Below are positions 6,081 to 57,199 of a DNA stretch of 64,000 nucleotides, piece after piece. Source of the DNA: Thermoproteota archaeon (GTDB lineage Archaea > Thermoproteota > Thermoprotei > Thermofilales > B9-G17). Below the pieces are notes generated by a model. That model was given only the letters and a program-made list of their open reading frames with translations. It was not told where the DNA came from and did not search any database. The translations under genes were made by a program, and so were the position numbers. The stretch is from contig JAPDJW010000009.1 of NCBI GenBank assembly GCA_029258885.1, positions 96,001 to 160,000 of the forward strand. Direction: 5' to 3'. Position 1 is the stretch's first letter, and each line of letters begins with the position of its first letter.

Positions 6081-7991
6081 TTGATTGAAAAGATACTGTG
6101 GGAACATAGGCACGGCTATCAGCCAAGGAGAATAATAGATGGATTTAAACTTAAGGAAAGAGAGAGACATGCTGTTAGAAAGGTTAGGGACAGAATTATA
6201 CATGGATTAAACGAATGTCATGTAGTCTTAGCTCCCGGCTCAGTATATGACGAGATCATAAATACGGTCGATAATAGATCGATAAATATCGAGCCAATAA
6301 CTCTAAAAATGCTTAAAGAATACAATGAGGAGGCATACAATGAGCTACTGGATAAGGTGTTCTCCGGTAGAACGTGGATTGTAGCTACGGCTTACTCACA
6401 TCCAATACAGCCGTTGATGCGCAGCGATAATAGAGACAACTTTCTGATAAACCTTTACTGGAGCTGGAGCTTTTTCTTCGAACTATTCTATAAATATATA
6501 CTTGATAAAACGAGTCCTTCAATAGTAGGATGGTGGATGCCTGAATGCGCCTACACTAAGGAGGCTATGGAGGACACGTATAAGGTAGCTAATGAAGTGG
6601 CTAAGGAATATGGATTCAATGATATATACTTGATCTTGTTCCTTGATGATAGGCAGGTTAAACGGAAGGGAGTCTCGATAGGATTCATTAAGGATAGAGT
6701 GATTGTAGCCATAAGGGATTCAGCATTAAGTAATGCCATAGCATTTAACAGCCTCTTAGCGGATATCCTATGTATATTTAAGGATAAGCTATGCAATGTA
6801 GATTCTCCAATAGGCGAGATGAATGACGCGGAATGCTATGGAGGCAACTATGACCCCAATAAGCCTATAATCCTCGAATACCTTTATCGGATCTTAGAGG
6901 ATGGAGTTAGATGTAGTGACGGCAAGATTGTTAGAATTAAGATGAAGAAGATAATCGGTATAGTTCTTGAAAAACTAGATAGGCTCAACGTAGTCGATGT
7001 ATATGATAATACATCGTGGTCAGATTATGTTCCAACTTTAGATCCTAATCTTAAGGGATCTTGGGATACGGCTTTAATAAGCAAGGGCATATTCTTTCCT
7101 CGGTGGACCGGAATAGATTACATTGAGGATGGTGTTGTAAAGACATATTATTTAATATATAGGCAGAAGATAGGAGATAGGATACAATTAAGAATAGTAA
7201 ATAGCGCCTGGAAGGTCGCATTTAACGTAATTAGGAAGGAGCTCTCCAATAAAGTCTACGAGATAGTAGTGGATTACCTAGATAGGGTGAAGGGAGGCAG
7301 TAAACTGCTTAGGGAGTATTGGCGGGTTTTACTGATAGGTGAAGATGAGGAAAAGCTAATTAGAATTCATCTAGGTGATGTTGACTTAGACGTATATTCA
7401 GGACTTTTAAAGGCTTATTCAAGGGTATGTCAGGATTCGTACATAAGCTGTCCAACCTTCTGGTGGAGCATTGAGAACGAACTGGTTGAAACGTCACTAT
7501 CCCTGATAGCTGGGGGAACGGTACTCTTAATAAACACGCTATTTAAAGCTGGAGACAATAGGTGGAAGAACATCCTTAAAGCATATCGTGAAATACTCCT
7601 TAATTTCGATAAATCAAGCTTCTGGGCTAAGTTCAAGAAGTGCATAGATCTGCAGCTTAATTTACTCTGGGACTACATAGAGAGAAAGAGCAGGGTCAAC
7701 ACGAATTTTCTATCCCGCATAGATCCAACTGACGATTACGAGGTTAATTTAGTGGCGAGAATGCTGTATAATATGGCATTTAGGGACGCAGGTCATCCTG
7801 TATACGAGGGAGATATAAACGTTCATCTAGTCAAGCTTAAGATATTGGAGGCTAGGGGAGAAGGATGCAGCCACTTGGCTAAAAGGGCTATAGCCTTTGA
7901 ATGGAATAAATCAATAAATCCTATGTTCGGGGAGAAAAATATAGTAGTAAGAATAGCTGAAAAACACTATAGATATTTAGAGGTATCTTAA
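6081..7991 (+). CDS. Divergent cytoplasmic GH57-like protein
   Basis: TTG start 11 bp after the amylopullulanase stop. WEHRHGYQP, WIVATAYSHPIQPL, GWWMPECAY and MNDAECYGG echo the GH57 conserved regions. No signal peptide. Confidence 0.65.
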   Translation: MIEKILWEHRHGYQPRRIIDGFKLKERERHAVRKVRDRIIHGLNECHVVLAPGSVYDEIINTVDNRSINIEPITLKMLKEYNEEAYNELLDKVFSGRTWIVATAYSHPIQPLMRSDNRDNFLINLYWSWSFFFELFYKYILDKTSPSIVGWWMPECAYTKEAMEDTYKVANEVAKEYGFNDIYLILFLDDRQVKRKGVSIGFIKDRVIVAIRDSALSNAIAFNSLLADILCIFKDKLCNVDSPIGEMNDAECYGGNYDPNKPIILEYLYRILEDGVRCSDGKIVRIKMKKIIGIVLEKLDRLNVVDVYDNTSWSDYVPTLDPNLKGSWDTALISKGIFFPRWTGIDYIEDGVVKTYYLIYRQKIGDRIQLRIVNSAWKVAFNVIRKELSNKVYEIVVDYLDRVKGGSKLLREYWRVLLIGEDEEKLIRIHLGDVDLDVYSGLLKAYSRVCQDSYISCPTFWWSIENELVETSLSLIAGGTVLLINTLFKAGDNRWKNILKAYREILLNFDKSSFWAKFKKCIDLQLNLLWDYIERKSRVNTNFLSRIDPTDDYEVNLVARMLYNMAFRDAGHPVYEGDINVHLVKLKILEARGEGCSHLAKRAIAFEWNKSINPMFGEKNIVVRIAEKHYRYLEVS

Positions 7992-8869
7992 CCCCATCCT
8001 CCCTGGAATGTTGATAGCGGCTTAGCGTTTTTAGCCTCAGGAGGCAGTACTATCGATACTGGCTTGTTTATATCCTTAATCTTCCACTCGCTGTGTATTT
8101 CGCTTGTAACCGAGCCTACGTTGCTCTTTATCTCCATCTCCATGTCGGATACCGTCTTAAGTACAACATAAGTTTCCTTATCGATCCATACTGTAGATGA
8201 AAACGATTTAATGGTGATATTACCTTGAAGTCCTGTTGGTATGTTCGAGTATCCTGTCGAAATAGTCTCCATTATAATATCTGTAAGCTCCTTTTCACTT
8301 AAGCCGCCGGGAGTTATCTCCACCTTATAGGCATCTCTCCCATCGACTTTCTCTACTCCCTTAACCTCAGCCTTAAGCTTCTCCATTAGAGAGATTGATG
8401 CATTAATCATTTCCTGTCTTTCCCACAATCCCTTCTGGGTAGTCTTATACCACCGGCCGAGTATTTTTATATACATAGTGTCGCCGATTATGTATATCTC
8501 GTAATTCATACCCTGGAATGTATATGCCATCTTCATCTTTTTACTCTTATAGTCAACAGCACCGTGCCCATCCATGTTTATGGTAACAGTAGTACCCATA
8601 ACCTTTGTTTTTATAGACATCGAGAGATCAAACTTATAGGTATTAACGTTCCTCAATGCATCGTACGACTTGGATATAATTTCATCAGCTGAAGGCAAGC
8701 CGCCACCAAACAACCCTGGAAGCAGGAAATATGCAGCAACAGCGGCAACACCTAGGACGGCAATTACAATAATTATTAAAATTATAGTTTTACCTATACC
8801 CTCCTTTTTGGTAGGAGGCGGTGGAGGGGGCGGCGGAGGTAGTTCCCCGCTTAAAAATATTTTCTTCAT
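7988..8869 (-). CDS. Membrane-anchored LppX/LprAFG (LolA-like fold) family protein with N-terminal Pro9 tract
   Basis: N-terminal SGELPPPPPPPPPTKK then one TM helix. The ectodomain has GVEKVDGRDAYKV and VWIDKETYVVLK, typical of the LppX_LprAFG/DUF6612-like fold. Confidence 0.65.
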   Translation of the reverse strand: MKKIFLSGELPPPPPPPPPTKKEGIGKTIILIIIVIAVLGVAAVAAYFLLPGLFGGGLPSADEIISKSYDALRNVNTYKFDLSMSIKTKVMGTTVTINMDGHGAVDYKSKKMKMAYTFQGMNYEIYIIGDTMYIKILGRWYKTTQKGLWERQEMINASISLMEKLKAEVKGVEKVDGRDAYKVEITPGGLSEKELTDIIMETISTGYSNIPTGLQGNITIKSFSSTVWIDKETYVVLKTVSDMEMEIKSNVGSVTSEIHSEWKIKDINKPVSIVLPPEAKNAKPLSTFQGGWG

Positions 8870-8943
8870 CTATATCCCCTGTGAAATAGTTAGCAAGGGT
8901 TATTAAAAAAGTAATCGCTTATTCAGAGTAGTTATAAACTAGG

Positions 8944-9720
8944 CTATTTATGCTCACTTCCACATTTCCTAATTAAATATTTTAGGATGTATGCAATCTT
9001 GCTATTCTTAATAATCACTCCTGTATCATACTCTGATTCAAGGGATGTATCGTCCGGAACAGATTCGAATAGTAGGACGTTGTCCTCGCCAATTATAATG
9101 ATGTTAGCCGTTTTTTCAGGGGCTTCTATGAGGAGGGTTTCAAGCTCCGGATCCTTGGATTTCGAAACGATATATACGTTAATGTTAAGTCCTTTTTCCC
9201 TAGCGAATTCCATATCCTCATAGTTGATTATTTTAATTCTTTCATACGTATTTCTAGAAATTACGAAGAATGCCTCACCTTTCTCAACTTGTCTAAGAAA
9301 CATCGAAATAGCGCTATGAATCCCCATACGCCCCTCAACAGTTTTAATAGCTTCATATACTCTCTTACTAGCCTTCCTATAGATTTGCTCTAGATCCTTT
9401 AAAATTAAGTTCTCGAAGTCCTCAAGTTTCTTGATTCGTTTTTCAAAATCAAGCACAAGTTTATGGCGAAGATTCTTTAGCGCAAGCTTAGGGTGTATAA
9501 CGCTGAACTTCATGGGTCTACCGGGTATTCTCAGTATTAGTCCCTTCGACTCAAGATTATTTATGGCGTCATAGATTCTAGTATACGGAATACCGCTGAT
9601 GTCACTTAATTCGCTCGCAGTAGCAGATCCTCGTGCAAGAAGAGCGATATATACCTTAGCTTCGTATTGATCAAGCCCATAGTATTCTAGGTACTTAATG
9701 AGGTTTTCTTCATTGATCAT
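8944..9720 (-). CDS. trmB: TrmB family transcriptional regulator
   Basis: YGLDQYEAKVYIALL...TASELSDISGIPYTRIYDAINNLESKGLI...GRPMKF is the TrmB wHTH; followed by a PLD-like effector domain. Confidence 0.9.
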   Translation of the reverse strand: MINEENLIKYLEYYGLDQYEAKVYIALLARGSATASELSDISGIPYTRIYDAINNLESKGLILRIPGRPMKFSVIHPKLALKNLRHKLVLDFEKRIKKLEDFENLILKDLEQIYRKASKRVYEAIKTVEGRMGIHSAISMFLRQVEKGEAFFVISRNTYERIKIINYEDMEFAREKGLNINVYIVSKSKDPELETLLIEAPEKTANIIIIGEDNVLLFESVPDDTSLESEYDTGVIIKNSKIAYILKYLIRKCGSEHK

Positions 9721-9932
9721 CGGTAAACACCCTAGCAGAAATAATTACCTTGCAAATATATTAAACTTCAGTATCTTAAAGCCTTTTATTTAAGTAAAAT
9801 AATTTTTATATCAATGGAAAAATGAAATCTTAAGTATTCAGTAGCTGAATACAACTATCGAAATATTCTACATGTTCTAAATAGGCGGCTTTGAATAAAT
9901 ATTAATATTTTACTTTAAACCTTAAGAATTAA

Positions 9933-14364: not shown

Positions 14365-14459
14365 CTAAAACCCCAAAATAATATGATACATATGCATCAT
14401 TTCAATAGTACACCTAAAACATTATAAACTTTTGCCCTTTATACAAAATAAAATTTTAT

Positions 14460-15149: not shown

Positions 15150-15250
15150 GGTAAATCCATAGGATTTTAGACTAAAAAGCTTTAACGGGCAATAGTGAGG
15201 GGATTATTGAAGCGTAAGAATAATTTAAGAGTTTTAAATAAAATATTTCG

Positions 15251-22527: not shown

Positions 22528-24507
22528 TCAGGATGAAGACGGAGGAGGTGGAGGAGGCGGGGGTTGCTTTTTCTTTCTAGCTTTAAGGGCTTTTTCAAAC
22601 GTTTTCTGGAAGTCTCCATATATTTTCCTGAATCCTATCGTAAGAACAAGCGACATCACTCCACTTAAGGAGGTATTCTGTAGAGTGCCTAATAGCGGCT
22701 TCAATAGCGTCGAGTTTATAATCCACTGGTATACTAGAAAGATTACTGCTACAATGGTTGTTGAAAGGAATGAGCTTGCACCGGAACCATATATTTTCAC
22801 CGCAATGTAGCCGATGACGTAGCCTATGAACAGCCCTAGGAGACTGATGTAAAGCGACTGCTTAAATGTCATCGATACAACAGAGCTAACTATCGCTGGA
22901 ACCACAAACAGCATTACTAAAGTATATGGCAGCTCCCTCACGAAAATAAGGTCCTTAAACTCAGCCAACTTTTCTTCATCTGTTAGTCCATATTCAACAG
23001 CGCGTTTAAGCATGAATATCGCTGATAAGACTGAAAACACAAGGAATCCATTGATATGTATTAGTTTAAACCAGTCCTCCGGAAACGTATGTCCACCCCA
23101 AAGATACTCGTAAGTTATTAACGTTACTCCCGGTAGTGCTTGAGCTGCCAATACTACAGCCATTATCTTATAGATGTAGTTTCCATACAGCTTATTATAG
23201 AATATGTCCTCATAGCCTTCAGGGGGAAGGCCCAGCTCAATAACTTCTGAGTATATAAACTCCTCTTCGAAGCGTTTCCTAAATAGAAGCCACAGTAGGG
23301 GCACGCCAATCCAATCCTGCGATAGAACCGTAGCATATACCATAACAGCTACTGTCATAGATATAGTGGGATTAAGCCCAGTTATTGATAGGTTATTGTA
23401 GAGGAAATATGCTATGTAGAGGGATATTAAGCCGTAGGCGAGCCCTAGCATAATCATAAGCCTACACATGTTCGTACGTAAATTGTCCTCTAGCTCATTC
23501 CAGTATAATGCGAAAAACAGTAAGCAGACAGAGAACAGTATAGCTGGCGCTATATATGTCGGGTTGTACGTTCTGTAATACAAAGGATTAATGAGAGCTA
23601 AAGCCGTATTAACTGCGAGAAACGCTAACACTAACCATCTCGGAACACTTTTTACGATTCTATTCGAAAATGCTACAAGAGCTGAGGATAGCAGAATTAT
23701 AGCCACAGCTATGCCTATATATGTATATGTTAAGTTTAGAACGAGGCTATAATCTGCAGTTCTCATATTCAGTCCAGAACACCAGCAGAACACGTTCAAT
23801 AGGAACTGGGCATTATCCTCCGAGTAAATATAGAAGTCGGAGAACATCGTTTCCGAGCCGAAGACTATAACTCTACCCTTACCATATACAGCTCCAGCAA
23901 TAGGCGTAAAGTTGCCGTATACGATTTCATCTTTCTCGAAATCATATGCCGCAGTCTCATCATTAGGTAAAACTATGGGGTATGAAGGGCTATTAGCAAC
24001 TAAAGCTATAGCATATGGGACAACGACCCTGCTAACATTAAAGCTGAACTCTTCCCTTATTCTGCTATATACAGGTATATTAATATCATCCCAAAACTTG
24101 AATACATTCACTGGATCGATGAGGCCATACGGCGTAACGGTAATATTTAGCGTATTTGTTAGCATAGATGGGTTAAACAGGTTATGGATTACAACCATAC
24201 CGCCACCGTTCTCCAGATACTTCAGGAAATTGTCATATGTCTCCTCAGATATAATGTCGGAGATGAAATAGTCGTAGGTTAAAACCATCCTGTACTCCCT
24301 AAGGCGGCTATAGGATATGTACCAGTCCCTATAGAATTCTATAGAGAAGCCATTGTCTTCTAGAAATCTAAATATTCTCTCATCTCCAGCAAACATCTCA
24401 CCTGGATCAAATACTAGAATAGTAACCTTAGGAGAAGCACTTACTCTAAATATCGATACAAGCAACAGAATAAGTGTCAATATTAATGCTTTTCTCATTC
24501 TATTCAC
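22528..24507 (-). CDS. Signal peptide + GATase-like (DUF4350/GldG-like) ectodomain + multi-TM protein with C-terminal Pro8
   Basis: FLKYLENGGGMVVI and GKGRVIVFGSETMFSD...DNAQFLLNVFCW, then about 10 TM segments, ending KKKQPPPPPPPPSSS. Confidence 0.6.
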   Translation of the reverse strand: MNRMRKALILTLILLLVSIFRVSASPKVTILVFDPGEMFAGDERIFRFLEDNGFSIEFYRDWYISYSRLREYRMVLTYDYFISDIISEETYDNFLKYLENGGGMVVIHNLFNPSMLTNTLNITVTPYGLIDPVNVFKFWDDINIPVYSRIREEFSFNVSRVVVPYAIALVANSPSYPIVLPNDETAAYDFEKDEIVYGNFTPIAGAVYGKGRVIVFGSETMFSDFYIYSEDNAQFLLNVFCWCSGLNMRTADYSLVLNLTYTYIGIAVAIILLSSALVAFSNRIVKSVPRWLVLAFLAVNTALALINPLYYRTYNPTYIAPAILFSVCLLFFALYWNELEDNLRTNMCRLMIMLGLAYGLISLYIAYFLYNNLSITGLNPTISMTVAVMVYATVLSQDWIGVPLLWLLFRKRFEEEFIYSEVIELGLPPEGYEDIFYNKLYGNYIYKIMAVVLAAQALPGVTLITYEYLWGGHTFPEDWFKLIHINGFLVFSVLSAIFMLKRAVEYGLTDEEKLAEFKDLIFVRELPYTLVMLFVVPAIVSSVVSMTFKQSLYISLLGLFIGYVIGYIAVKIYGSGASSFLSTTIVAVIFLVYQWIINSTLLKPLLGTLQNTSLSGVMSLVLTIGFRKIYGDFQKTFEKALKARKKKQPPPPPPPPSSS

Positions 24508-24687
24508 CCTGCCTTATTGTAGTATTATAATCGCTAGGATTATATTAAATTTAAGGAAAAATGGGTTAAAAGATCTAGTGAACGTCATCATGTAATAATT
24601 GATTCAAAACACTATGAGAAATTGACATTTAAAAAAATAGCCTTATATATTATCCGAGGCCTATGAAAATAAATACCTAGATTGTAT

Positions 24688-27600
24688 TTACCACGGAGGT
24701 GGAGGAGGCGGAGGCGGGCGAACTTCCGCCTTCTTCCTACTTCTTCCTAGTGTTACTACAATGATGAAGCCAATAGCTACTATAGCGATAACTACTATGG
24801 CTATATTTAATATGTTTAACTCTACTCTCCAGTTTGCCACTAAGTGTTTAGGCGAATCCATTGTTATATAGAGCTCACGCTGACTCGAAGTTACATCGCC
24901 GCTCCATCCGGTAAATACCGCCACCTGGAATAGATTTATGTTAACTTTATCCTCTATCGAGACATGTGCAGTACTGCCTGCATCGTACCATCCGGCTCCG
25001 GACGGGCTACCGTATTGCGACTCTATGGTCAGCTTATACTGCCTAGCATAGTTTGCAACTAATGTCATTGGGCGATCCAGGAATACCGTTATAGTCGTAT
25101 CCTGCACGCCCGTACTCCATCCCCTGAAAACTATTCTCTCATAGGGAGAAACCTGTATAGAATCAGCAACTGTAATCGTGTATTCACCATATCCAGTTAT
25201 TTCCGCAATACCCTGTGCATCGGTCTTATACGTGACACCGTTTACGACAACATTCATATCGGGTATACCCGTCTCTATCCTGAGAACAGCTCCAACAGCT
25301 TCAATAATAGCTGAAGCTTCACCAAAGTATGTTTGAGCTACAACCTCAAACCTGCCCGATTCATTAAATATAATGCTAAAAACGGCTCTTCCATGTTCAT
25401 CAGTGTAGCCATAGTCAATGATGGAACCATTAACCAATAATCCAACGGCAACTCCACTGAGTCTTTCTCCACCGGTAGTTTCAACAGTTACTTCAATGTA
25501 TACTTCTTCTCCAATTGAAGCTTCCTCGGGAGCATCAATACTTACGGAGGCAGCGACCTCCCTTACTATAGGCTCGATCCTCCAAGAGGACGACCACCAG
25601 GCTCCAGCGAAGAGGTATTTTCCATCAGGAGTTAAAGCTATATGTCTAATCAGCCTGGTAGAGAGGCCTTTATTAAACCTATAGATTCTCACGGTGTTGT
25701 CTGACGACCTAACGTCCTCGAGGAAGGCATAATACATGCCTTCGCCCTCAACGGATGAAATATACACTATTCCTCTGTTCCAGTCAACTCTGAGTGCCGT
25801 ATACTGTTCCGCAGAGCTACAGAGGAAGGGCTGAAGAACCAATGTCTTAAAGCTGAGTGTAGTGCTTGAAATATCCGGACAATAAATTATCTTACCCGTA
25901 GACTCCAGCGCCAGCATTTCACCGCTACCGCTGATAACTATTGATACTATTCCTCCCTCAGTTCTACCGCTGCTCGGATAGACCTGCCTCCAAATAGTAT
26001 TCTCCTTACTGGTTAGCAAGTTTTCAGCTATAAAGAGCCTGCTAGGACCATCCCAGAAGTAATGGTCGTTTCCCTCGGTCTTAAAGGTAGGTTCCCCCTC
26101 ATAAGTCGCTAAAACCCATACATCTCTACCGCCAGCACGATATACCGCTATCCTGCACACCCCTCCATCCTGAGGTAAACCTTTATTGGATATGAACCCA
26201 CTGCGGCTGGCTAGGTCATATACTTCAACGCCATCCTCCTGAAGAGCTAAAACTACGTAGTGATCCACGAGAATCCCATACACTGCTGGATTGCTCGTTA
26301 GGTTAACAGCTCCCTTTACAAGTAATTTACCTGTTTTCCTTGCCTCACATATATATTCGATGGATACCGCTATCAAGCCGTACCTCTTTGGAGCCTTACC
26401 CGATACTCCAGGAACGGGACCTGGATATCCAGTTATTATCAAAAGATCCAGTGGATAATCCTTTCCATCAACAGTAACCTTATAGCCATACTCCTGTGGC
26501 AGAGGCAGTGCACACCAGGGGAACCCAGCCCTAATAGCTGTTGGAGGCAGGTCAAAACAGTCAAGCCAAGTATTTCCATAGTCATAGGATATCTCGATGC
26601 CTGCCTGGCACACAACCATGAAAGTATGTGAAAACGGTTCTCTATTGAGGAACCATATCTGATTCATGCACTCCCCGTAGAGTCCCGAGTAAGATGGATT
26701 CCAAGTTCTTCCTCCATCCACCGTCTTAAGCAGACACCTGAAGGAGTAGGAGCAGGTATATGCTATCTTGGCTCCAACGACACCATCTATAGTAATTGTA
26801 TAGTCGTCCGGATTGTCTCCCTCTCCATGCTTATCTATTGCTATAAATGCACCCCATCCATTAGTTATAAACGAATGGAGAAATTCCTCTTTCACGGGAT
26901 CCCATGCAAACACTCCAAATACGCACTCCTGAGGCTCGGGATAGGGATAGGCTCTCACCAGCTTTCCTGGAGTACCCCACCATACCCTATTCGGATTATA
27001 TGGATCAACTTCAACTTCACTTATAACAGGAATTATTGGCAGGGATATAGGCTTTAAGGCACCCTCTGTTGGATCTATCCTCCTCCACTTCCAGCTATTG
27101 TGCTTATATTCTCCCCTATAAATCCAGTCATTATACGTCCCCAAGTATACGATATCATAGTCCACAGCCACATCTACGTCGGTTGTAGCCTTATCCATAA
27201 GCTTAATCCACTTCCACTCGCCTGTGAGATTAGTAGCCATGTATAACCCGCTGGGATACTTAGATACGAAGAGCGTAGGACCTAAACCAGCAAAGTCGGG
27301 GTCGTATGCAAGCCTATAGACGATCATCTTAACATTCTTCGGGACGACATCTGGGGGCAAAGCATGTCTTATGGCAGTCCATTCGCCACTACTTTCGTTG
27401 TATATCAGCTCATATATCCAGTTAATCTGTTTAGCCTGAGGATTAAGGCTCTTAATTCCAACATACAAGTGTTTACTGCTCAAAGCAACTATAGATGCAA
27501 TTTCACAGAACTCCTTCTTCTCCAAATCCTCGTCTCCAGTATTAATTCTCCTCCACGAGAATCCATCGTCAAAGCTAATATACATTCCTCCCTTGCCAGC

Positions 27601-29310
27601 TCCAGCAAATAACACACCTTCACTTTCAGCCATCGATACAAAGCCAACATCCACAAGGTTCTCCTCAGTAATCCTACTCCAGCTTCTAGCCCCATCAGTA
27701 CTTCTAAAAGCGGAGTTACCAGTTGCAGATATGACAGTATGTTTCGACGTAACGTAAACGAAGTATTGATCCCCGCCGTCTGGACCTATATTCACCCACT
27801 CGCCGTCAAGAACCTTAACTCCTCTAGGCTGAGGTATCAGCGCAAGTACGCCCGGCAAATCGGGATCCCAGTTGTTAAAGTAAACTCTATCGGCCATTTC
27901 AGCTACTGATGCAATTTCAATCAGCTTCCTAACGTTAGTTACGTGGAGAAATTCTCTATCTGAAATCAGGTGATTCCTAACATTATCAAAGGTTATGTCG
28001 ATATTAGCGGCGTTCTCAACCCCCTCCACGCTTCGTCCAGCCACGTACTCCAGATAGCTCATGTCAGGATTAAGCCTAATCCATATACCCCTCTTCTTGA
28101 AAGCATTATAGTTAACAACAATATTCGGGAAGTCGGGCGCTGGACACATATGCTCCTTCAGGAATCCTAGCTGCATAACCTTAAGCCAGGGAGCATTAGC
28201 AACAATTTCATCGTAGTGAAACCCCATATCCCTATTATACCAGAAGTTGTATGTTTCATCTAAATCCATAATAACGCTGGGAAGCCCCGCTAAAAGACCC
28301 TTTTCACTTGCAGCCTTAATCACCAGGTAGGAATACACCTTCCTAACACGACCCTCAAGCACAACTATCCAAGGCCTAAATATGTAATCCTCATAGGGAT
28401 CTATCCTACCATTACCGTTTAGATCGGTGTTGTAGAACACTCCTCCCCCGGTATAGTCCGGCTTACCATTGCCATTATTATCGAGGTAAAAGCCTACAGT
28501 GTTATCATAGCTAAGAGTGGTAAAGTTAATGAAACACCACGTCTCGTTGCATGTACCCGGAACGTAGTTCGGATTCCTCATATCGTTCCACGGCAATCCA
28601 TCTCCATCAGCATCATAGTTCGGCTGCTTATCATCCCCATTCCTACCTAAATCGGTAGTAGTAAGGAAGTTTGTAGCAGGGCTCTCATAGAAGACTATGT
28701 ATTTAACGTTCTCAAGGCCACTACTATATCTGGCGAAAACCATAGCAGCCATAACTCCGCCGTAGGATGAGCCATACATGCCGACATTATCCGTTAAAAC
28801 CTGATAGTCGACGTAATCACCTATAGTCTTACCGGAACCACTTGCAAGTTTTCCCTGAGCAAAACGAAGCACTGAATAGAGTGCCTCATAGCATGCATCA
28901 CCCCTATAGTCGTAGATCCCACCGCTTTCAAGGTAAAGCTTTTCACCGGAAGGCGTCTTAAACGTAGTATTACCTCCTGGGAAAATAAAGTATATCCATA
29001 TTATGCCATGAGGATCCCAATCATAGTCTAGAAATGGAAAGAAGCCAGCGTATGGGCCGCCATGCACGTATACGACAACGGGAGCGGCTGAACCATATCT
29101 AGGCTCCTTAGGATAAAGCATTAAGGTAGCAACACCCTTAGATCCAGCGGAGGAACACGGTATCCAGAATATAACAGCATAAAACTTCTCAAACTCGTAT
29201 GGACCGTATTCCTCCGGAGAGGCAATTGGCTGAGCTTGAAGGAACATTAGCTGAGGTCCGGTAATTAGTAGTAATATGTATAACGATATTAAAATTCTAC
29301 GTATGTGCAT
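24688..29310 (-). CDS. Giant surface-anchored protein: alpha/beta hydrolase + Asp-box beta-propellers + Ig-like repeats + TM + Pro8 tail
   Basis: Likely start is ATG 29310 after SD AGGTGA (track extends to 29397). Signal peptide; VYVHGG and GMYGSSYGG nucleophile elbow; DADGDG/DNNGNG/DLNGNG Ca-loops; Asp boxes STDGARSW, SFDDGFSW, TVDGGRTW, SYDYGNTW; YGSPSGAGWY repeat; TM; RPPPPPPPPW-stop. Confidence 0.75.
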   Translation of the reverse strand: MHIRRILISLYILLLITGPQLMFLQAQPIASPEEYGPYEFEKFYAVIFWIPCSSAGSKGVATLMLYPKEPRYGSAAPVVVYVHGGPYAGFFPFLDYDWDPHGIIWIYFIFPGGNTTFKTPSGEKLYLESGGIYDYRGDACYEALYSVLRFAQGKLASGSGKTIGDYVDYQVLTDNVGMYGSSYGGVMAAMVFARYSSGLENVKYIVFYESPATNFLTTTDLGRNGDDKQPNYDADGDGLPWNDMRNPNYVPGTCNETWCFINFTTLSYDNTVGFYLDNNGNGKPDYTGGGVFYNTDLNGNGRIDPYEDYIFRPWIVVLEGRVRKVYSYLVIKAASEKGLLAGLPSVIMDLDETYNFWYNRDMGFHYDEIVANAPWLKVMQLGFLKEHMCPAPDFPNIVVNYNAFKKRGIWIRLNPDMSYLEYVAGRSVEGVENAANIDITFDNVRNHLISDREFLHVTNVRKLIEIASVAEMADRVYFNNWDPDLPGVLALIPQPRGVKVLDGEWVNIGPDGGDQYFVYVTSKHTVISATGNSAFRSTDGARSWSRITEENLVDVGFVSMAESEGVLFAGAGKGGMYISFDDGFSWRRINTGDEDLEKKEFCEIASIVALSSKHLYVGIKSLNPQAKQINWIYELIYNESSGEWTAIRHALPPDVVPKNVKMIVYRLAYDPDFAGLGPTLFVSKYPSGLYMATNLTGEWKWIKLMDKATTDVDVAVDYDIVYLGTYNDWIYRGEYKHNSWKWRRIDPTEGALKPISLPIIPVISEVEVDPYNPNRVWWGTPGKLVRAYPYPEPQECVFGVFAWDPVKEEFLHSFITNGWGAFIAIDKHGEGDNPDDYTITIDGVVGAKIAYTCSYSFRCLLKTVDGGRTWNPSYSGLYGECMNQIWFLNREPFSHTFMVVCQAGIEISYDYGNTWLDCFDLPPTAIRAGFPWCALPLPQEYGYKVTVDGKDYPLDLLIITGYPGPVPGVSGKAPKRYGLIAVSIEYICEARKTGKLLVKGAVNLTSNPAVYGILVDHYVVLALQEDGVEVYDLASRSGFISNKGLPQDGGVCRIAVYRAGGRDVWVLATYEGEPTFKTEGNDHYFWDGPSRLFIAENLLTSKENTIWRQVYPSSGRTEGGIVSIVISGSGEMLALESTGKIIYCPDISSTTLSFKTLVLQPFLCSSAEQYTALRVDWNRGIVYISSVEGEGMYYAFLEDVRSSDNTVRIYRFNKGLSTRLIRHIALTPDGKYLFAGAWWSSSWRIEPIVREVAASVSIDAPEEASIGEEVYIEVTVETTGGERLSGVAVGLLVNGSIIDYGYTDEHGRAVFSIIFNESGRFEVVAQTYFGEASAIIEAVGAVLRIETGIPDMNVVVNGVTYKTDAQGIAEITGYGEYTITVADSIQVSPYERIVFRGWSTGVQDTTITVFLDRPMTLVANYARQYKLTIESQYGSPSGAGWYDAGSTAHVSIEDKVNINLFQVAVFTGWSGDVTSSQRELYITMDSPKHLVANWRVELNILNIAIVVIAIVAIGFIIVVTLGRSRKKAEVRPPPPPPPPW

Positions 29311-29509
29311 GACATCACCTAAACTAAGGTATACCTTAACTAAATCAGCGAATAAATAAACAGTAATGTTTTTAATATCGCTTACGATTAACTTCAAAAA
29401 GCTATAATATTACATACCGGAAATATAGTCAGGCATGCATCATAAGATAAATAATTTAGATAAATTAAAAATTATCTAAATAATTACGTTAAAACGGATG
29501 ATTATCTAA

Positions 29510-34234: not shown

Positions 34235-34759
34235 CTAGTAGGGAGGAGGCGGTGGAGGCGGAGGAACAGCTACAGGTCTTTTAACCTCCTCAGGCTTATG
34301 TAAGAAATACGCTATAAACATAAATACTCCGCCAGCCATTACGACTAATGGTCCTAATCCAAAACCTATGCTCGCGCCTAGTAAACTCCCATATTTAGAC
34401 AAAATCCTCGATTTTATCATTTCAATCATTGCTATCCAGCATATTCCAGCTACTATAAGTAAGATTCCAGAGGCAATTTTTGCTTTCTTCGATACGAGGG
34501 CTACTATTCCAATCAATACTCCCAGACCATAGGATATAAGCGATGCTGTACCTAGAAACTCCTCGGTTGTCTCGGGAGCTCTAATGTTAACTCTGAAGCT
34601 CTCAGGCACGTTTTTCGCAACTGATATCATATCGTATAGGCTCATTTCAAGTGATAGAAACGCTACCTTTACTGTAAACCACGGCAGGAAGAGGGCAACT
34701 ATAGCTGCTACAAGCCCTATTAAAGCCACAATTAAGGATACAATGTGGATTTTCATCAA
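34235..34759 (-). CDS. Small 4-TM membrane protein with C-terminal Pro8-Tyr
   Basis: ALFLPWFTV after TM1, GFGLG before the last TM, ending KRPVAVPPPPPPPPY. Confidence 0.75.
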   Translation of the reverse strand: MMKIHIVSLIVALIGLVAAIVALFLPWFTVKVAFLSLEMSLYDMISVAKNVPESFRVNIRAPETTEEFLGTASLISYGLGVLIGIVALVSKKAKIASGILLIVAGICWIAMIEMIKSRILSKYGSLLGASIGFGLGPLVVMAGGVFMFIAYFLHKPEEVKRPVAVPPPPPPPPY

Positions 34760-34829: not shown

Positions 34830-37800
34830 TTAAGGATCCCTAATGATTCTTGATAGCTCTTTAATTATTCTGCTTTTTGTGAGCATATTTATCCGAGATT
34901 CATAGTCTACAGCGGCTTTTGTCACCCTAACTCTGTTTTCAATCTCTTTTCTCACCCTACTCCATATCTCGCTGAAGTCATCGTATAGGACGTCGTTCTC
35001 AGTAAGTATAGGTTTCTCTATCTCTGTGATCTCGATCTCCTCTGCCGCGAGCCTCCAAATCATGTCTGAAAGCCTATCTAAAGCAGATGCAAATATCTCC
35101 ATTACCTTAGCGTATGCACTCAAGATTGGGGCATACCTGGATCCCGGCATTAAATTTAAAGCACTTGAAAGCTTCCTAAGGACATCTCCCGGCGTCCTCG
35201 GCTTCTCCAGGAGCCTAAGCACTGATGTAATCTTTTCAGTTACCTCCTTAACTCCATCCAGTCCTATACCCTCACTCTCGATTCTCACAGTATTTTCGCC
35301 AAGATACTGTCCGGTAGATACAGCTTTCTGGCAGCTCTCCATAACTTCAATAGCATTCTCAAGAGCCTCTCGTATAGCCCTTATGAAATCTTCCTCCTCC
35401 TCAATAGCCTTAAGTTCCTCGCTGGACAGGAAGTCCCAAAGCCTTTCTCTAGCCATAGCCTTCTTAAAGTTCTTCTTTATATTCTCAAACCTTCTCCTAA
35501 ATTCCGTTAGTTTATCAGAGAACTCCTTCACTTCTCCTTCAAGGTCTGATGGATCGGGAAGCGACCTGTAGCTTCCGGACGCACTATAATATTTAGTTAA
35601 AACCTTATTCTTATCCTTCAGGTAGCTTCTCCATATCTCCCAGCACTCCTCACGCGTCTTAACGGCTTGAAGCTTAGCCCTGTAAACATCTACTCTACTC
35701 CTCAGGCTAACAATATCATCTACAGCTTCATCAAGCCTTGCATATGTCTGCTCGCCCCTATCAATGTATTCTTTAACACGTTCATTAAACGAGTTGAGGT
35801 CCTCAAGCACACCTTCAATTTCAGAAATAATATCATCCAATGGGAGGAGTGCGCCCTTAACCCTATCTATCAGATCAGGTCTACACGGCGGATTGCTCTT
35901 ATATTCTTTAATATTCTCCTTAAGCCCGCGGAAATGCTTATCTAGGTCGTTCAGCGACCCGAGTATGTTGCGGTACTCCTCAATCTTCCTTCTACACTCG
36001 CCTCTCTCAGAGGCAGCTTCCCTAATTAACTTAGTAAGCTCATCTATCTCATTACGAAGCAGCCGGTCAACCTTATCCCTACACCTCCTCAGCTCCAGCT
36101 CGCAGCTCCTATACTTCTCCTCTAAGGCATCAGCAAACTTATCCACCTTATCCCGCATAGCCTTAAGAGATCCAATATTCCTCCTAAGCTCGGATGCCAT
36201 TTCGTCAAGAGCCCTTATATCGGCCTCAAGATCCCTAATTCTACTCTCCTCCTCAGTAAGCCTCTTAACGCCCCTCCAGTAATCCCTAATAACCTTACGT
36301 AGCTCCCTCCTGAACGAGTTAAACCTTCTAAAGAACTCATCAACTCTATCGGTTAAGTTTATCCTAACTCCGCAGAGCTCTATATAGTCCCTCCCCTCCC
36401 CGTCGGAGACCATGTCATGAAATATGTTTCTAACGTAATCGCCCGCCTCATCAATCCCACGCTTAATCCTCAAAATGTTACGTTTAGCCTCAGCAAGCTC
36501 ATCCCGCTTCAGGGAGAGGTTCTTTTCAACTCCATTCAGCTTGCTCTCGTACTCGCTTATCGCCTTATCTATAATGCCGTCCCTTATATCCATGACCTCC
36601 TTATACAGCCTATATATCTCATCACACGTAAAGCACGCAGGATTCAAGGCCAGAATTCTGTTGAGTAGATCCAGAGCCCTACCAACCCTAATAGCTAGGT
36701 CGTCGAGGAGAAGCTTACGCCTACTCTTCGACTCAGATAACTGGACATCCAGCTTAGCTATCTCATCCTCAGCCTCCTTAAGCCTGCTCCTAAGCCTCGA
36801 TAGGATCCTATCATACATGTTGATGGCAGCCTTTAAACCCCTATTCGCCATATAGCTACGGGTATAGTCTCCAGCAGCCTCAGCGCGCCTTGCAATATCC
36901 TCATAGAACTTAATACACTCATCCCTACTAGCCTCAGCCCTAGCGATCTTATCGTTTAGAAAATCCCGCATAGCCTTAGCCCTATAGTACCTCGACAACA
37001 TATCTCCCAACTTTAAGGTTTCATCGAGAAGATTCTTAGCTGCACTAGATATTCCCGACAGCTCATCCACTATCTGCTTTCCAAACATGTTAAACGCAAC
37101 CTTCTCCCTAGCACAAGGCTTCCTCCTACTGTAGTACAAGACGCCGCCGCCTAAACCGAAGGCTGCAAGAAGAATAGCTATAATAGTTGCTGAAAATGGA
37201 ACGATAACAGTTATCTCCTTATCCTCCGTCAGCTCAACCGTAATAAACCTATCATAGAATAGACAGCTTACCCTAACATTATACGTCCCAACCGGAAGCT
37301 TACCTAATAGAACGGATCCATCTCCATGTACTGTTAGAGTTTCACCGTCAGGTAGAACGGTGGATGCTGTGATGCCTGATACAGCTATTCCCAGCGGATC
37401 GACCACGTTGATTTTCAGGTCGTAGACTCTACAGTCGATCGTGAAGGACTTGGATCCATCAACCTTAAAAACTACAGCCTCCAGGGGCTTTACGTCAGCA
37501 CCCCTATACTGTACCAGCGTTAGAGTATATATGCCCTCCTTAAGCCACACATTAACGTACTCCGTTAATATTAGCTTAACTCCATCACAGGCTATCTCGA
37601 TTGCATTGGGAGTTATTTCCTCGCCCTTAGATTTAATAAACCTAAAGCTTACGAGGAAGTATCGATCCCAGTTAGCTATTAGGACATAGGGCTTATCCAC
37701 CCTAAGGGTGAATGAGCTACGGTTGATGGTTAAATCCCCAATCCATTCTCTAAACTCAACCTTCGTCCCGTTATCGAACTCTAGGATGGGCGTAATACTT

Positions 37801-38963
37801 ATCGTCACGTTGCTACCTGCAGGATGCCATCCATCCCCCTTGGGATAGTCGTATCTCGAAATGAGGGTTACTAAGTGGTATATCCTCCACTTCGCCGTGA
37901 TGTTTATAGGATCTGCGAGGGAGCCTACAACTAGCTGAGGTTTACTTGGATCAAGCGTATTCCTACCCCAGTCGCCTTCCCACGAGACAAATACCGCCTT
38001 ACTTCCATTGCCCACCATAACCTCACTCTGTTTCACTCCAAGCTGAACCGTGCTGCCCTCCTTATACCATCCGCTTCCATAGGCTTCCCCATAGGGCGAG
38101 CTAACGATAACCCTATACTCGGCGTCGTATTCGCATGTGCCGTTGAACCCATCCTCATCTATATAGACTTTCCTAGGATTATCCGTAACGCCGTCGCTCC
38201 ATTCGACGAAGACATACCTTATATCATCTGATACGTTTATAACTGGGGGAACGTATATCTCGTGCCATCCAACAGGTATGTAGGCTGTAATCTCACCATC
38301 CTCAGCTACATACTCGACTCCATCTATAACCACGTAGGTTACGTTAACTGGGACGTATATCTCAACAGGCGTCTCAAGGGCATACCTTATTAGGGTTGAA
38401 TATTCCTCATCAGGCGTAAAGTCCCCGCACACGTACTCGTACTCGGTGACAACCCTCCAATTAAGCTCCTTAGGCTCCTCGTTAAGCCCTAGCTCGCTTT
38501 TAGGTATAAGGAGAGCTAGTGCAGTAGAGTTTTCAAGATATGCTTGAGCGGAGGTTGATACGTCATCCCAACCCCAGCTCCTATATACGCTGGCAGAAAC
38601 TCCTAATCCCTCATAGAGTGTTATTGAATACATTGTATCGCAGTAGTTAAATGGAGCATCCTGACAGTTATTCCCGGGATCTCCGTCCCTATCGAAGAGC
38701 ACGTAATAGTAAGTCTTTTTCTCAGTAACCTCAGGTATTTCACCATAGACGTTTATTACAACCCTGAGGAAATTCTCCTCCTCAAATACGGCAATGCACT
38801 TAACGTCCACGAAACCTACGTAGCCTGAAGCCGCTCCGCCAGTCCATATGTCAAGCAGATCATTGTCGGGATCCTCTATAAAATCCATGTAGATATAGGC
38901 TGAGGCATAGCTATTGAGAAAAAGCGCAATAATAAGTAAACTAATTATATACCTTCTTTTCAT
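34830..38963 (-). CDS. Large single-pass protein: extracellular beta-domain array + TM + ~750-aa coiled-coil region
   Basis: Signal peptide; DPDNDL...VDVK...YYVLFDRDGDP (glucodextranase-C/DOMON-like); repeats SPYGEAYGSGWY and SRYDYPKGDGWH; TM ending GGVLYYSRRKP; long heptad-rich E/K/R region. Confidence 0.7.
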   Translation of the reverse strand: MKRRYIISLLIIALFLNSYASAYIYMDFIEDPDNDLLDIWTGGAASGYVGFVDVKCIAVFEEENFLRVVINVYGEIPEVTEKKTYYYVLFDRDGDPGNNCQDAPFNYCDTMYSITLYEGLGVSASVYRSWGWDDVSTSAQAYLENSTALALLIPKSELGLNEEPKELNWRVVTEYEYVCGDFTPDEEYSTLIRYALETPVEIYVPVNVTYVVIDGVEYVAEDGEITAYIPVGWHEIYVPPVINVSDDIRYVFVEWSDGVTDNPRKVYIDEDGFNGTCEYDAEYRVIVSSPYGEAYGSGWYKEGSTVQLGVKQSEVMVGNGSKAVFVSWEGDWGRNTLDPSKPQLVVGSLADPINITAKWRIYHLVTLISRYDYPKGDGWHPAGSNVTISITPILEFDNGTKVEFREWIGDLTINRSSFTLRVDKPYVLIANWDRYFLVSFRFIKSKGEEITPNAIEIACDGVKLILTEYVNVWLKEGIYTLTLVQYRGADVKPLEAVVFKVDGSKSFTIDCRVYDLKINVVDPLGIAVSGITASTVLPDGETLTVHGDGSVLLGKLPVGTYNVRVSCLFYDRFITVELTEDKEITVIVPFSATIIAILLAAFGLGGGVLYYSRRKPCAREKVAFNMFGKQIVDELSGISSAAKNLLDETLKLGDMLSRYYRAKAMRDFLNDKIARAEASRDECIKFYEDIARRAEAAGDYTRSYMANRGLKAAINMYDRILSRLRSRLKEAEDEIAKLDVQLSESKSRRKLLLDDLAIRVGRALDLLNRILALNPACFTCDEIYRLYKEVMDIRDGIIDKAISEYESKLNGVEKNLSLKRDELAEAKRNILRIKRGIDEAGDYVRNIFHDMVSDGEGRDYIELCGVRINLTDRVDEFFRRFNSFRRELRKVIRDYWRGVKRLTEEESRIRDLEADIRALDEMASELRRNIGSLKAMRDKVDKFADALEEKYRSCELELRRCRDKVDRLLRNEIDELTKLIREAASERGECRRKIEEYRNILGSLNDLDKHFRGLKENIKEYKSNPPCRPDLIDRVKGALLPLDDIISEIEGVLEDLNSFNERVKEYIDRGEQTYARLDEAVDDIVSLRSRVDVYRAKLQAVKTREECWEIWRSYLKDKNKVLTKYYSASGSYRSLPDPSDLEGEVKEFSDKLTEFRRRFENIKKNFKKAMARERLWDFLSSEELKAIEEEEDFIRAIREALENAIEVMESCQKAVSTGQYLGENTVRIESEGIGLDGVKEVTEKITSVLRLLEKPRTPGDVLRKLSSALNLMPGSRYAPILSAYAKVMEIFASALDRLSDMIWRLAAEEIEITEIEKPILTENDVLYDDFSEIWSRVRKEIENRVRVTKAAVDYESRINMLTKSRIIKELSRIIRDP

Positions 38964-49863: not shown

Positions 49864-49867
49864 TCTT

Positions 49868-51082: not shown

Positions 51083-51176
51083 GTAGCCACCAATCTAAAA
51101 TATAGTTATGCCTTAATTATCTTATCCGTTGAAATAATGGATAAACATAGATAAGTAGAGAGCTACATAGCTATAG

Positions 51177-52334: not shown

Positions 52335-52341
52335 AGATAGC

Positions 52342-52394
52342 GTAAACCGTCTGTAAACTACTCAAGTTTACGATATCGTAAACCTACCGTAAAC
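52342..52394. repeat. Phased GTAAAC hexamer array around a perfect 18-bp palindrome
   Basis: GTAAAC at 52342, 52353, 52378 and 52389 (11-bp spacing within pairs) and inverted at 52366. GTTTACGATATCGTAAAC (52366-52383) is a perfect palindrome. Confidence 0.8.
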
Positions 52395-52547
52395 TTTTAG
52401 TACGCAGGGTTTCCGGTTCTCTTTCTGCACGTTTCACCAATCCCCATCTAGTATTTCATTAAGTTTTTAACTACAACTCATCTCAACATATCGATTTCAC
52501 AGGCGATAAGCGAAACAGGAATATAATCATAGTCAAGGTATATAGAT

Positions 52548-53108: not shown

Positions 53109-53143
53109 CTGATTTTCTGAAATGAATTTAAAAGTCCAATCGC

Positions 53144-54985: not shown

Positions 54986-55211
54986 AAAAACCCCTCTTAA
55001 GCCTGAGAGTAGAATATATCCTATGTATCGATGACCTCCGTATCTTTTGTAATATTTCCTAAATAAGCTAGATTAGTTTTACTCTAGGAAGAACAGTATT
55101 TTCATAGAATTTCCATTCCCATACATTTTAGGTAGACTTTACCTAGATAGTTGTCACAAAATTACCTATGAAATTTGCCTAGAAGGTTATGCGACAGCTG
55201 TTGGATGAAAC

Positions 55212-56477
55212 TTAAATCCATCCTCTGAGCTTCATTGCCTCAACAACCCTGGATACAGCTATAGCGTATGCAGCTGTTCTCATAGGTTCATCACTGTACT
55301 TGCTTGTCCACTCACTATAGACGGTGTCGAAGTTCATACTCATTTTCTCGTCGAGGCGCTTAAGTGCGTCCTCATCCTTAAGCCAGCAGCCCATTTTATT
55401 GTGACACCACTCAATCCAGCTCATAATTACTCCGCCAGCGTTAGCCAGTATATCCGGTATATCCACAACTCCCTTTTCCTTAAGGATGATGTCTGCTTCA
55501 GGTGTAACCGGCCCATTAGCTCCCTCCGAGATTATCTTAGCCTTAATTCTGTCGGCGTTTTCCTCGGTAATTACGTTCTCTATTGCTGCTGGAATGAGAA
55601 TATCGACATCCAGCTCCAGCAGCTCCCTATTTGAAATTTTCCTCCCTTCAGGATAATTTATAACGCTCCTAGTTTTCTCCTTAACCTCAACAAGTCTGTT
55701 AAAGTTCAGCCCATCAGGGTTGTATATCCCTCCCTTACTGTCGCTCACTGCAATGACCTTGGCGCCCCACTCAATAGCGTAATACATAGCCCATCTTCCC
55801 ACGTTACCGAATCCCTGAATAGCTACAGTTTTGCCCTCAAATCCGCCTAAAACCTTCTTAGCGGCCTCTCTAGCAACCAATGCAACCCCGTATCCAGTGC
55901 TAGTAATCCTAGTCTTCAAACCCCCCAGCAGATATGGCTTAGCGGTAACAACCCCCCAGTCGTCGTATCCTACAATCTTACTATACTCATCGAGGAACCA
56001 CGCCATAACCTGAGGATCCGTATAGACGTCAGGAGCAGGTATATCGATATCGCTTCCAACGAACCTAGCTATAGCCCTAAAATATCCTCTAGACAGCTCC
56101 TCCAGCTCCCTCCTCGATAACGCCTTAGGATTAACCCTAACTCCACCCTTACCTCCGCCATAGGGTAATCCAGCTAAAGCGTTCTTCCAAGTCATCCACA
56201 TTGATAAAGCCACAACCTCTCCCACTGTAACTTCGGGATGGTACCTCACGCCGCCCTTATAGGGTCCAAGGGCACTATTATGCTGACTCCTCCATCCAAG
56301 GAAAACCCTTATAGAGCCATCATCCATTTTAACTGGAATCTTAACTTGAATAAGCCGCTCGGGATGCATAAGCGCCTCGACAACCTCATCCTCAAGCCCC
56401 AGAATTCTGGCAACATTCCTAAGCTGTCTAACAGCCATACGGTAAACTTTCTCATCCATATATGGGGCATAACCCAT
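55212..56477 (-). CDS. gdhA: Glutamate dehydrogenase (Glu/Leu/Phe/Val family)
   Basis: GPYKGGVRYHP, MTWKN, YGGGKGG, DIPAPDV, IQGFGNVG, EGANGP and PDILANAGGV motifs. Confidence 0.95.
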   Translation of the reverse strand: MGYAPYMDEKVYRMAVRQLRNVARILGLEDEVVEALMHPERLIQVKIPVKMDDGSIRVFLGWRSQHNSALGPYKGGVRYHPEVTVGEVVALSMWMTWKNALAGLPYGGGKGGVRVNPKALSRRELEELSRGYFRAIARFVGSDIDIPAPDVYTDPQVMAWFLDEYSKIVGYDDWGVVTAKPYLLGGLKTRITSTGYGVALVAREAAKKVLGGFEGKTVAIQGFGNVGRWAMYYAIEWGAKVIAVSDSKGGIYNPDGLNFNRLVEVKEKTRSVINYPEGRKISNRELLELDVDILIPAAIENVITEENADRIKAKIISEGANGPVTPEADIILKEKGVVDIPDILANAGGVIMSWIEWCHNKMGCWLKDEDALKRLDEKMSMNFDTVYSEWTSKYSDEPMRTAAYAIAVSRVVEAMKLRGWI

Positions 56478-56512
56478 ATGGACACCTGAGAATGTAAAAA
56501 CCTTAAGGATAT

Positions 56513-56680
56513 TTATCTTCTGCCATATATCATGTAGTTATAGAGTTGCCTCAGGTAGTTCCTTAAGCCTTGAATCTCCTTCTCTAAATTTGCTACCCTC
56601 TGCTCGAGGAGGACGATCCTCTCTCTAAGCTCAATGTAGTTCCTCCTAAGCTCCCTAATTTCCTCACTTGACATGCTCAT
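56513..56680 (-). CDS. Small 55-aa coiled-coil protein (not in ORF track)
   Basis: MSMSSEEIRELRRNYIELRERIVLLEQRVANLEKEIQGLRNYLRQLYNYMIYGRR: heptad Leu pattern, AGG/GAG codon usage like neighbours, and it fills the gap upstream of gdhA. Confidence 0.75.
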   Translation of the reverse strand: MSMSSEEIRELRRNYIELRERIVLLEQRVANLEKEIQGLRNYLRQLYNYMIYGRR

Positions 56681-56725
56681 CGCCAAGTTTTAAATAAGTA
56701 TTTTATCGATAAAAATTTTAGTATT

Positions 56726-57199
56726 TTAAGTAGGCGGTGGAGGAGGTTGCATCCTATATATCAATCCAGTTATCTGAGTCTGCCACCACTCCGGATTACT
56801 AACACACTTCAAAACGATCTCATACACGTTTCTGCCACCCGTATCTATAAGCACGTCGCCATAGTTGAATATGCTCCCAGCAAGCCCTTTAACAACTTTA
56901 ACGCCAGTAACCTGGCTGAGAATAACGTCATCAATAGTCTTCCTAATGGATCCGCGGATAAGCCTAACCCTAAAATTTGTCAAAACGTAGGTAGTCCTAG
57001 TACGTGAGGCTTCAGCATAAATAACCGGAATTATTGAAGCAAGAGCTAGGGAAAGTGCAAGAAGCTCCTTTTCAGAGAAGAGGTATATTAGAATGGCTGA
57101 GGCAAGTAGGAGCACGGTCAGGATATAGTATGGAATGTACTTAGCCCTGGACGGGTGAGCCTTAGCTATAATCCGCTCGCCCTGATACAGATCCCTCAA
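56726..57199 (-). CDS. Membrane protein with bacterial PH domain (bPH_2) and C-terminal Pro5
   Basis: Two TM helices then YVLTNFRV...GSIFNYGDVLIDTGG, ending MQPPPPPT. Confidence 0.82.
   Translation of the reverse strand: MRDLYQGERIIAKAHPSRAKYIPYYILTVLLLASAILIYLFSEKELLALSLALASIIPVIYAEASRTRTTYVLTNFRVRLIRGSIRKTIDDVILSQVTGVKVVKGLAGSIFNYGDVLIDTGGRNVYEIVLKCVSNPEWWQTQITGLIYRMQPPPPPT

Follow-up and report, generated by a model that had tools for sequence, protein, structure and literature searches.

Terminal polyproline tracts on unrelated membrane, surface and soluble proteins of a Thermoproteota archaeon: a selected protein element and possible docking handle

The window analyzed here is a 64,000-nucleotide stretch (C5:96001-160000) of a 2.10-Mb, 26-contig Thermoproteota genome that is 99.9% complete. 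The ThiDN protein of the window shares 65-69% identity with its counterparts in uncultured Thermoproteales, Thermofilaceae and Thermoprotei metagenome-assembled genomes, in agreement with a Thermoproteota archaeon whose order is probably Thermofilales. It contains five genes encoding membrane proteins which carry, close to one end of the polypeptide, an uninterrupted run of prolines (hereafter Pn, where n is the number of residues) (Table 1). Translation places all five tracts in frame at the listed positions, as originally predicted, and the carriers are unrelated as proposed, their mutual similarity being undetectable in an all-against-all BLASTP comparison. The codon mix noted in the prediction was also confirmed, and hence the tracts are not slippage microsatellites. 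In the DUF6612 protein, P9 is followed by TKKEGIGK and then by the transmembrane (TM) helix. The 1569-amino acid (aa) surface protein shares its C-terminal repeats with five paralogues encoded elsewhere in the genome, in which the repeats resemble InlB B-repeats and which themselves end in P7-P10.

Table 1. Polyproline tracts of the window and the genes that encode them (window coordinates)
Feature	Position	Strand	Description
P9 tract, DUF6612 protein	8813..8839	-	N-tail of a DUF6612 (LolA/LppX-like) type II membrane protein, residues 11-19; translation, Pfam DUF6612 E=1.2e-18
Gene, 293-aa DUF6612 protein	7988..8869	-	Short basic N-tail with P9, one TM helix (28-46), external domain
P8 + SSS + stop	22540..22563	-	Preceded by KALKARKKKQ; translation
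Gene, 659-aa protein	22528..24507	-	Signal peptide, DUF4350/GIFT-like external domain, ~10 TM helices, basic tail with P8
P8 + W + stop	24694..24717	-	10 residues (GRSRKKAEVR) past the C-terminal TM anchor
Gene, 1569-aa type-I-like surface protein	24688..29397	-	C-terminal repeats, C-terminal TM anchor
P8 + Y + stop	34241..34264	-	12 residues (HKPEEVKRPVAV) past TM4
Gene, 174-aa 4-TM orphan	34235..34759	-	No Pfam family; 70 bp downstream of the gene for a 1377-aa coiled-coil membrane protein
P5 + T + stop	56732..56746	-	End of cytoplasmic bPH_2 domain; translation, Pfam
Gene, 157-aa protein	56726..57199	-	Two TM helices and a bacterial PH domain (bPH_2)

The genome-wide counts given below depend on a crude, purpose-made open reading frame (ORF) caller (2095 genes, 88% coding); TM helices were located by a Kyte-Doolittle scan, and topology was assigned from hydropathy and the positive-inside rule alone. 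Runs of at least five prolines occur 23 times in 22 proteins of the genome, in which proline makes up 4.0% of residues, and 15 runs of P8 or longer were observed, compared to a chance expectation of ~4e-6 for P8 in the proteome. These runs are concentrated at protein ends: 16 of the 23 lie within four residues of the C-terminus, versus 0.5 expected under uniform placement, and three start within 12 residues of the N-terminus. Proline is the commonest long homopolymer genome-wide (23 runs, followed by leucine with 12 and glutamate with 7) and the only terminal one (19 of the 23 runs lie near an end), since long runs of glutamate, lysine, leucine and alanine are not terminal. Length separates the terminal runs as well. 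Internal runs of 2-9 prolines number 1026, 84, 11, 1, 1, 1, 0 and 1, respectively, which corresponds to a geometric decay; C-terminal runs of 2-12 prolines number 17, 4, 0, 1, 0, 3, 7, 1, 2, 1 and 1. Terminal P7-P12 tracts, with a mode of 8, are thus a separate length class, lengths of 4-6 being nearly empty.

The usual layout is a TM helix, three to five lysines or arginines, P8, up to four further residues and the stop codon. Where a C-terminal tail follows a TM helix, 10 of 13 linkers comprise 5-15 residues and the other three 51-87 aa, and linkers between helix and tract contain two to five lysines or arginines. The residue ahead of the run is often hydrophobic (leucine, phenylalanine, isoleucine or valine before P8 in many tails), both in the order to which this archaeon belongs and in other families. 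The residues after the tract (0-4 before the stop) differ: none, A, G, S, Y, W, VY, SSS or DEWY.

Among the carriers, proteins with a TM helix are enriched as expected from the original prediction (17 of 22, compared to 623 of all 2095 proteins, i.e., 30%; p=5e-6), and the enrichment persists when the six-member surface-protein family is collapsed and independent families are counted (12 of 17; p=6e-4). The membrane and surface carriers comprise DUF6612, DUF4350/GIFT-like 10-TM, DUF996, DUF4870, PLDc_N and bPH_2 proteins, beta-propeller surface proteins with InlB-B-repeats, a PQQ-propeller surface protein, two orphan multipass proteins and a type II coiled-coil protein. The tract is nonetheless not restricted to membrane proteins, because five carriers have no predicted TM helix, among them representatives of three further families: a zinc-ribbon/GIFT-like protein ending in E6-Q-P10-E, a coiled-coil/glycine-zipper protein ending in P8-A, and a 102-aa coiled-coil protein ending in P11-G. 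Nor is it a common tag for membrane proteins: of 310 proteins with the last TM helix no more than 40 residues from the end, only 10 carry the tract, and in most of the 53 type-I-like surface proteins the terminal basic tail stands alone. Terminal carriers span at least 14 unrelated families in this genome, to which the tract was attached independently. A single paralogous family behind all the tracts was considered and rejected, since there is one six-member surface family and the other carriers are unrelated to it.

Several observations on the neighborhood of these genes were made in passing. The genes for the 1569-aa and the 10-TM DUF4350-like proteins (window 22528-29397, minus strand) are adjacent and co-oriented, the former being followed after 180 bp by the latter, and may form one operon or encode one complex; a neighbor of this kind is missing upstream of the 10-TM gene's orthologue in G001. 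The 1377-aa protein (window 34830-38963, minus strand), which shows an ATG17-like/AAA_13 coiled-coil match, is encoded 70 bp upstream of the P8-tailed 4-TM gene, and the two may be co-transcribed. Elsewhere in the window (3148-7991, plus strand), a GH57 family gene (973 aa) adjoins a maltose-forming alpha-amylase-like gene (636 aa), beside an OPT-family transporter. Outside the window, two polyproline-coding sequences of the same genome (G000) situated ~80 bp from contig ends, at C1:79-105 and C13:78-107, duplicate exactly those at C1:4131-4156 and C12:22-50; paralogous surface-protein genes probably break the assembly there.

The nucleotide sequences of the tracts indicate at which level they are maintained. 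All 19 in-gene (CCN) tracts of at least seven repeats are read in the proline frame, none in another frame or on the opposite strand, and none is truly intergenic, the two extra copies being the duplicates at contig ends; the signal therefore resides in the protein and not in the nucleic acid. A DNA or RNA element (an anti-Shine-Dalgarno-like C-rich tract, an opposite-strand G-quadruplex or a slippage microsatellite) was rejected on the same grounds, together with the mixed codons. CCC accounts for 10% of tract codons compared to 20% genome-wide, which limits C-homopolymers, and CCG is enriched. In 44 orthologue pairs with 378 aligned tract positions, the same codon is used at 34% of positions, versus 30% by chance, and every codon encodes proline. 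Because third positions are randomized while the codons all remain proline codons, selection acts on the amino acid run, and this is direct evidence of long-standing purifying selection on it.

Many orthologues keep the tract. In DUF6612 proteins, P9-P11 precedes KKK and the TM helix in genomes G001, G015, G002, G009 and G019 and is lost in G014. The 4-TM orphan has a single homologue in the order (in G003, with 31% identity), which ends in P8 followed by VPL; the tails of PLDc_N, DUF996 and zinc-ribbon/GIFT proteins are kept in other genomes, and those of DUF996 and of a ~230-aa multipass family are kept across orders. The N-terminal tract of DUF4870 is retained by a metagenomic protein with 68% identity and by members from no fewer than six genomes belonging to four families, and Desulfurococcaceae homologues with 36-41% identity lack it; a word-index search with the DUF4870 protein returned only four proteins. 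Tract length differs among orthologues (P8 and P4, or P9, P10 and P11). The nearest orthologue of the 10-TM protein, in G001, ends in KKRPPPPAQ. An exact-peptide scan of the genome contigs for relatives of the 10-TM protein gave no matches. In G001 (contig C17; L125:3303-3410), the gene for this orthologue is interrupted, its ORF stopping at IIIYR and the conserved tail (GFKKIYNDFEKSLKVKKRPPPPAQ) resuming in another frame; either a frameshift or a mistake in the assembly is responsible, or the gene is broken.

The same polyproline module turns up throughout the order as well as in further families of Thermoproteota. P8-coding tracts are present in 31 of the 41 genomes of the order. Among 65 sites of P8 or longer read in its other genomes, 25 lie within five residues of a stop codon, 20 of these 25 after a TM helix and a basic cluster, ~10 are N-terminal, and 13 lie in doubtful ORFs. 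In a sample of 151 genomes from across the phylum, 73 contain a P8 tract, and the count is highest in the present genome; the built-in control of this pattern search is uninformative, as the reversed pattern equals the pattern. P8 abundance is unequal between related genomes, even within one genus. Forty sites were read in six other Thermoproteota families: ~27 are C-terminal, with a TM helix, RRRK or RRRR, three to six residues and P8-P12, and eight are interdomain linkers of secreted proteins. Such linkers (P9-P15) were seen in two paralogous groups of secreted proteins in genomes of family f16 (L190, L194, L197, L199, L200, L209, L213, L215), where the run stands either between ...SAA and ..KKPVSIQLNVPSEA or between ...VVEVYV and KESTSM..., and represent a second, non-terminal use of long polyproline. 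Extreme tracts were also noted in relatives, namely P29 at the end of a 390-aa ORF, P20 in an internal position, and an end composed of P14 and CPW (L186, G025:C41; L109, G023:C1; L103, G025:C29).

The tails are mostly predicted to face the cytoplasm, as the original prediction had it, because a basic cluster usually adjoins the tract (positive-inside rule); DUF4870 would prevent this location from applying to every tail. This protein has three predicted TM helices, and its tract is N-terminal in most genomes, while the homologue in G020 (L108) bears P8 at the C-terminus instead. Its N-terminal flank is acidic, and lysines and arginines lie in the first loop and the C-tail, from which an external N-terminus is predicted. 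The topology of PLDc_N and DUF996 proteins is ambiguous by charge counts.

Taken together, the tract is a real element: terminal, of preferred length, selected at the protein level and recurrent across Thermoproteota. The original prediction is thereby partly supported, in that the element is selected and mostly predicted to be cytoplasmic, and it is neither a general sorting tag nor linked to the ESCRT machinery.

We hypothesize that the tracts are a portable docking handle in polyproline-II (PPII) conformation to which a partner protein would bind, a reading to which we assign a probability of roughly 0.37. A proline run of this kind forms a stiff PPII rod ~25 Å long. The uninterrupted run of 7-12 prolines, most often eight, at 0-4 residues from a free protein end constitutes a distinct class of terminal element. 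It would function as a short linear motif at the membrane's inner face, as well as on a few coiled-coil or zinc-ribbon proteins that are soluble, and its soluble partner would differ from the proline readers known in eukaryotes. Both the PPII conformation and the partner binding are inferred. Docking accounts for the lower length limit, the pure proline composition and the portability of the run, its occurrence at both termini and the soluble coiled-coil carriers. The closest parallels are the eukaryotic ligands of profilin, EVH1, SH3, WW and GYF domains (formin FH1 regions, FPPPP motifs), which likewise comprise 6-12 contiguous prolines able to form a PPII rod, often with a hydrophobic residue ahead, and are portable among unrelated proteins. 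In contrast to them, the archaeal tracts are pure homopolymers at the extreme terminus, mostly directly under the membrane, and the reader families are undetected.

Several results weigh against this docking reading. No reader was found: in a six-frame hidden Markov model (HMM) search of the genome (match threshold E<=0.1-1), the profilin (PF00235), SH3_1 (PF00018), WW (PF00397), GYF (PF02213) and GYF_2 (PF14237) families gave no match, although divergent readers could escape such models, and WH1 (PF00568, EVH1) gave none either, an uninformative result because its control matched in no genome. MIT (PF04212), another conceivable reader, was also without a match, and no profilin-like gene was found among the neighbors of the actin gene described below. 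The residues past the tract are not conserved. DUF4870 strains the reading further, because a tract found at either end of a protein with three helices must, if the prediction is right, be extracellular in one of the two positions; moreover, topology throughout is hydropathy-based. Finally, some orthologues lose or replace the tail, so that the conservation proposed as a check of the original prediction holds only in part. In G029, G003 and G002, the 10-TM orthologues have a helical EGRISEETY..LKxKYE tail in place of the tract; a SHOCT identity of these replacement tails is unconfirmed, since Pfam gave only sub-threshold GvpG and DUF1707 (SHOCT-like) matches. The G001 orthologue of the bPH_2 protein has P4 and a zinc ribbon at this position, and its other homologues have no proline run.

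A more specific version of this idea is that a Thermoproteota polyproline reader, unrelated in sequence to profilin, SH3 and WW, ties P8-tailed membrane and surface proteins and a few coiled-coil adaptors to a cytoplasmic scaffold, possibly crenactin; we regard it as doubtful. The genome encodes one crenactin-type actin homologue. Its gene (G000:C2:404199-408881, L111; 423 aa, aromatic-rich C-terminus) is followed by genes for proteins of 234, 65 and 839 aa in an arcadin-like arrangement, and the relatives of the 234-aa protein in the ESM Atlas are all unnamed archaeal proteins. P8 tracts occur in ~70% of sampled genomes of actin-bearing families versus ~35% of those of actin-less families, in a comparison whose genomes are not phylogenetically independent, in which several families break the pattern, and which guanine-cytosine content may confound. 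The association is only suggestive and a weak lead.

The tracts could instead act during translation, a possibility that we place next after docking although it is itself unlikely. A run of at least eight prolines would slow the ribosome in dependence on hypusinated aIF5A, and it would also make the tail longer, so that the last (stop-transfer) TM helix would start to leave the tunnel and meet the translocon before release; at N-termini, the tract would throttle early elongation. The machinery for polyproline translation is encoded, as the original prediction presumed, by genes for aIF5A (PF01287, C3:44936-45124) and deoxyhypusine synthase (PF01916, C2:317735-318610). The enrichment of tracts on TM proteins agrees with such a role, and the dominant layout would put the tract at about residues 25-47 from the start of the TM helix, with its end at roughly residues 32-47, where the helix would emerge. 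In Escherichia coli, motifs dependent on EF-P, the counterpart factor, likewise consist of consecutive prolines and are overrepresented close to start sites and also downstream of TM helices; most of these are PP or PPP, their distance from the TM helix is ~45 codons, and net selection on them is negative (PMC5811046). The archaeal tracts differ from them in being P7-P12, 5-15 aa past the helix, at the very end of the protein and positively maintained. At ~45 codons, the E. coli helix is out of the tunnel, whereas here it would mostly still be inside when the tract starts. Five carriers have no TM helix, three C-terminal tracts lie 51-87 aa from the last predicted one, and 300 of the 310 C-terminally anchored proteins do without a tract. 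A pause further leaves the near-absence of terminal P4-P6 unexplained, since three prolines suffice to stall a ribosome, and N- and C-terminal tracts would need separate rationales.

Only slightly less weight than to translation is given to a passive cap or rigid spacer that acts without a partner and would resist aminopeptidases, carboxypeptidases and tail-initiated AAA+ proteolysis, or stop fraying of the ends at high temperature. X-Pro and Pro-Pro bonds resist most exopeptidases. Protection of this kind accounts for the restriction to free termini, at either end and on either side of the membrane (DUF4870), for the soluble carriers, for the variable residues past the tract and for the orthologues in which a zinc ribbon or a helical tail has taken its place. 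Two prolines would, however, block exopeptidases, yet terminal runs comprise 7-12 and almost never 4-6; a lower limit of ~7 residues is therefore more in keeping with a length-dependent ligand than with a cap. Most of the exposed tails encoded by the genome are also uncapped, and protection does not need strong purity of the run. A neutral, mutation-driven expansion of low-complexity sequence tolerated at protein ends is improbable. Variation of tract length between orthologues, gain and loss of tails and unequal abundance among related genomes would fit it, but it is largely refuted by synonymous sites that are saturated while all codons encode proline. Mixed codons depleted in CCC argue against recent slippage, other homopolymers (E, K, L, A) are not terminal, lengths are bimodal, and tails are kept across orders in DUF996 and other families. 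Least probable of all is a role of the tail in vesicle loading or in recruiting ESCRT/Cdv machinery, as the original prediction had envisaged; recruitment would resemble that of an MIT domain by a MIM2 motif. Proline-rich MIM2 motifs do bind Vps4 MIT domains in Sulfolobales. In this 99.9% complete genome, however, Snf7 (PF03357) was, like MIT, without a match (in the Sulfolobus control, MIT exceeded the cut-off and Snf7 matched only below it), and the tracts are uninterrupted prolines lacking the interspersed hydrophobic positions of MIM2. An actin homologue of the crenactin type is present instead, which fits lineages without Cdv, and the ESCRT idea therefore fails here. Explanations outside those considered are together unlikely, ranking below the cap and above neutral expansion.

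Two other classes of C-terminal element invite comparison. PDZ ligands, too, are short and occupy the free cytoplasmic C-terminus of membrane proteins that are not related to each other; they depend on the last three or four residues and the carboxylate, whereas here the last residues vary and N-terminal tracts occur too. PGF-CTERM/archaeosortase and LPXTG/sortase signals similarly combine a C-terminal TM helix with a following basic cluster on surface proteins. In contrast to these, the polyproline lies past the basic cluster, on the cytoplasmic side, and would thus be lost with the anchor rather than serve as the recognition site, and it is found on multipass and soluble proteins as well. 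Reading of the 1569-aa window protein showed no PGF, PEF or LPXTG-type motif ahead of its TM helix, the ends of the other tailed surface proteins having been read only from ~6-32 residues before the tail. In a 2026 preprint, the surface-layer proteins of Thermoproteales are noted to have a cytoplasmic tail that is basic and conserved; proline is not mentioned there. Full-text literature searches found no description of terminal polyproline tails in archaea, which thus seem to be undescribed.

What emerges is a clean, length-defined polyproline end-tag that is under selection and has been grafted independently onto more than 12 unrelated membrane, surface and adaptor proteins across an archaeal phylum. 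Its role can be tested directly, since closed, single-contig genomes of the same order that resemble cultured strains carry the tracts. If the tracts are translational, they would represent the first widespread, positively selected, aIF5A-dependent terminal pause in archaea. If a reader exists, it would define a novel archaeal system of protein interaction or handling, in lineages that possess an actin homologue and lack ESCRT. Docking through proline motifs counts as a hallmark of how eukaryotic cells are wired, and a polyproline reader connected to a scaffold would, if true, be its prokaryotic counterpart.

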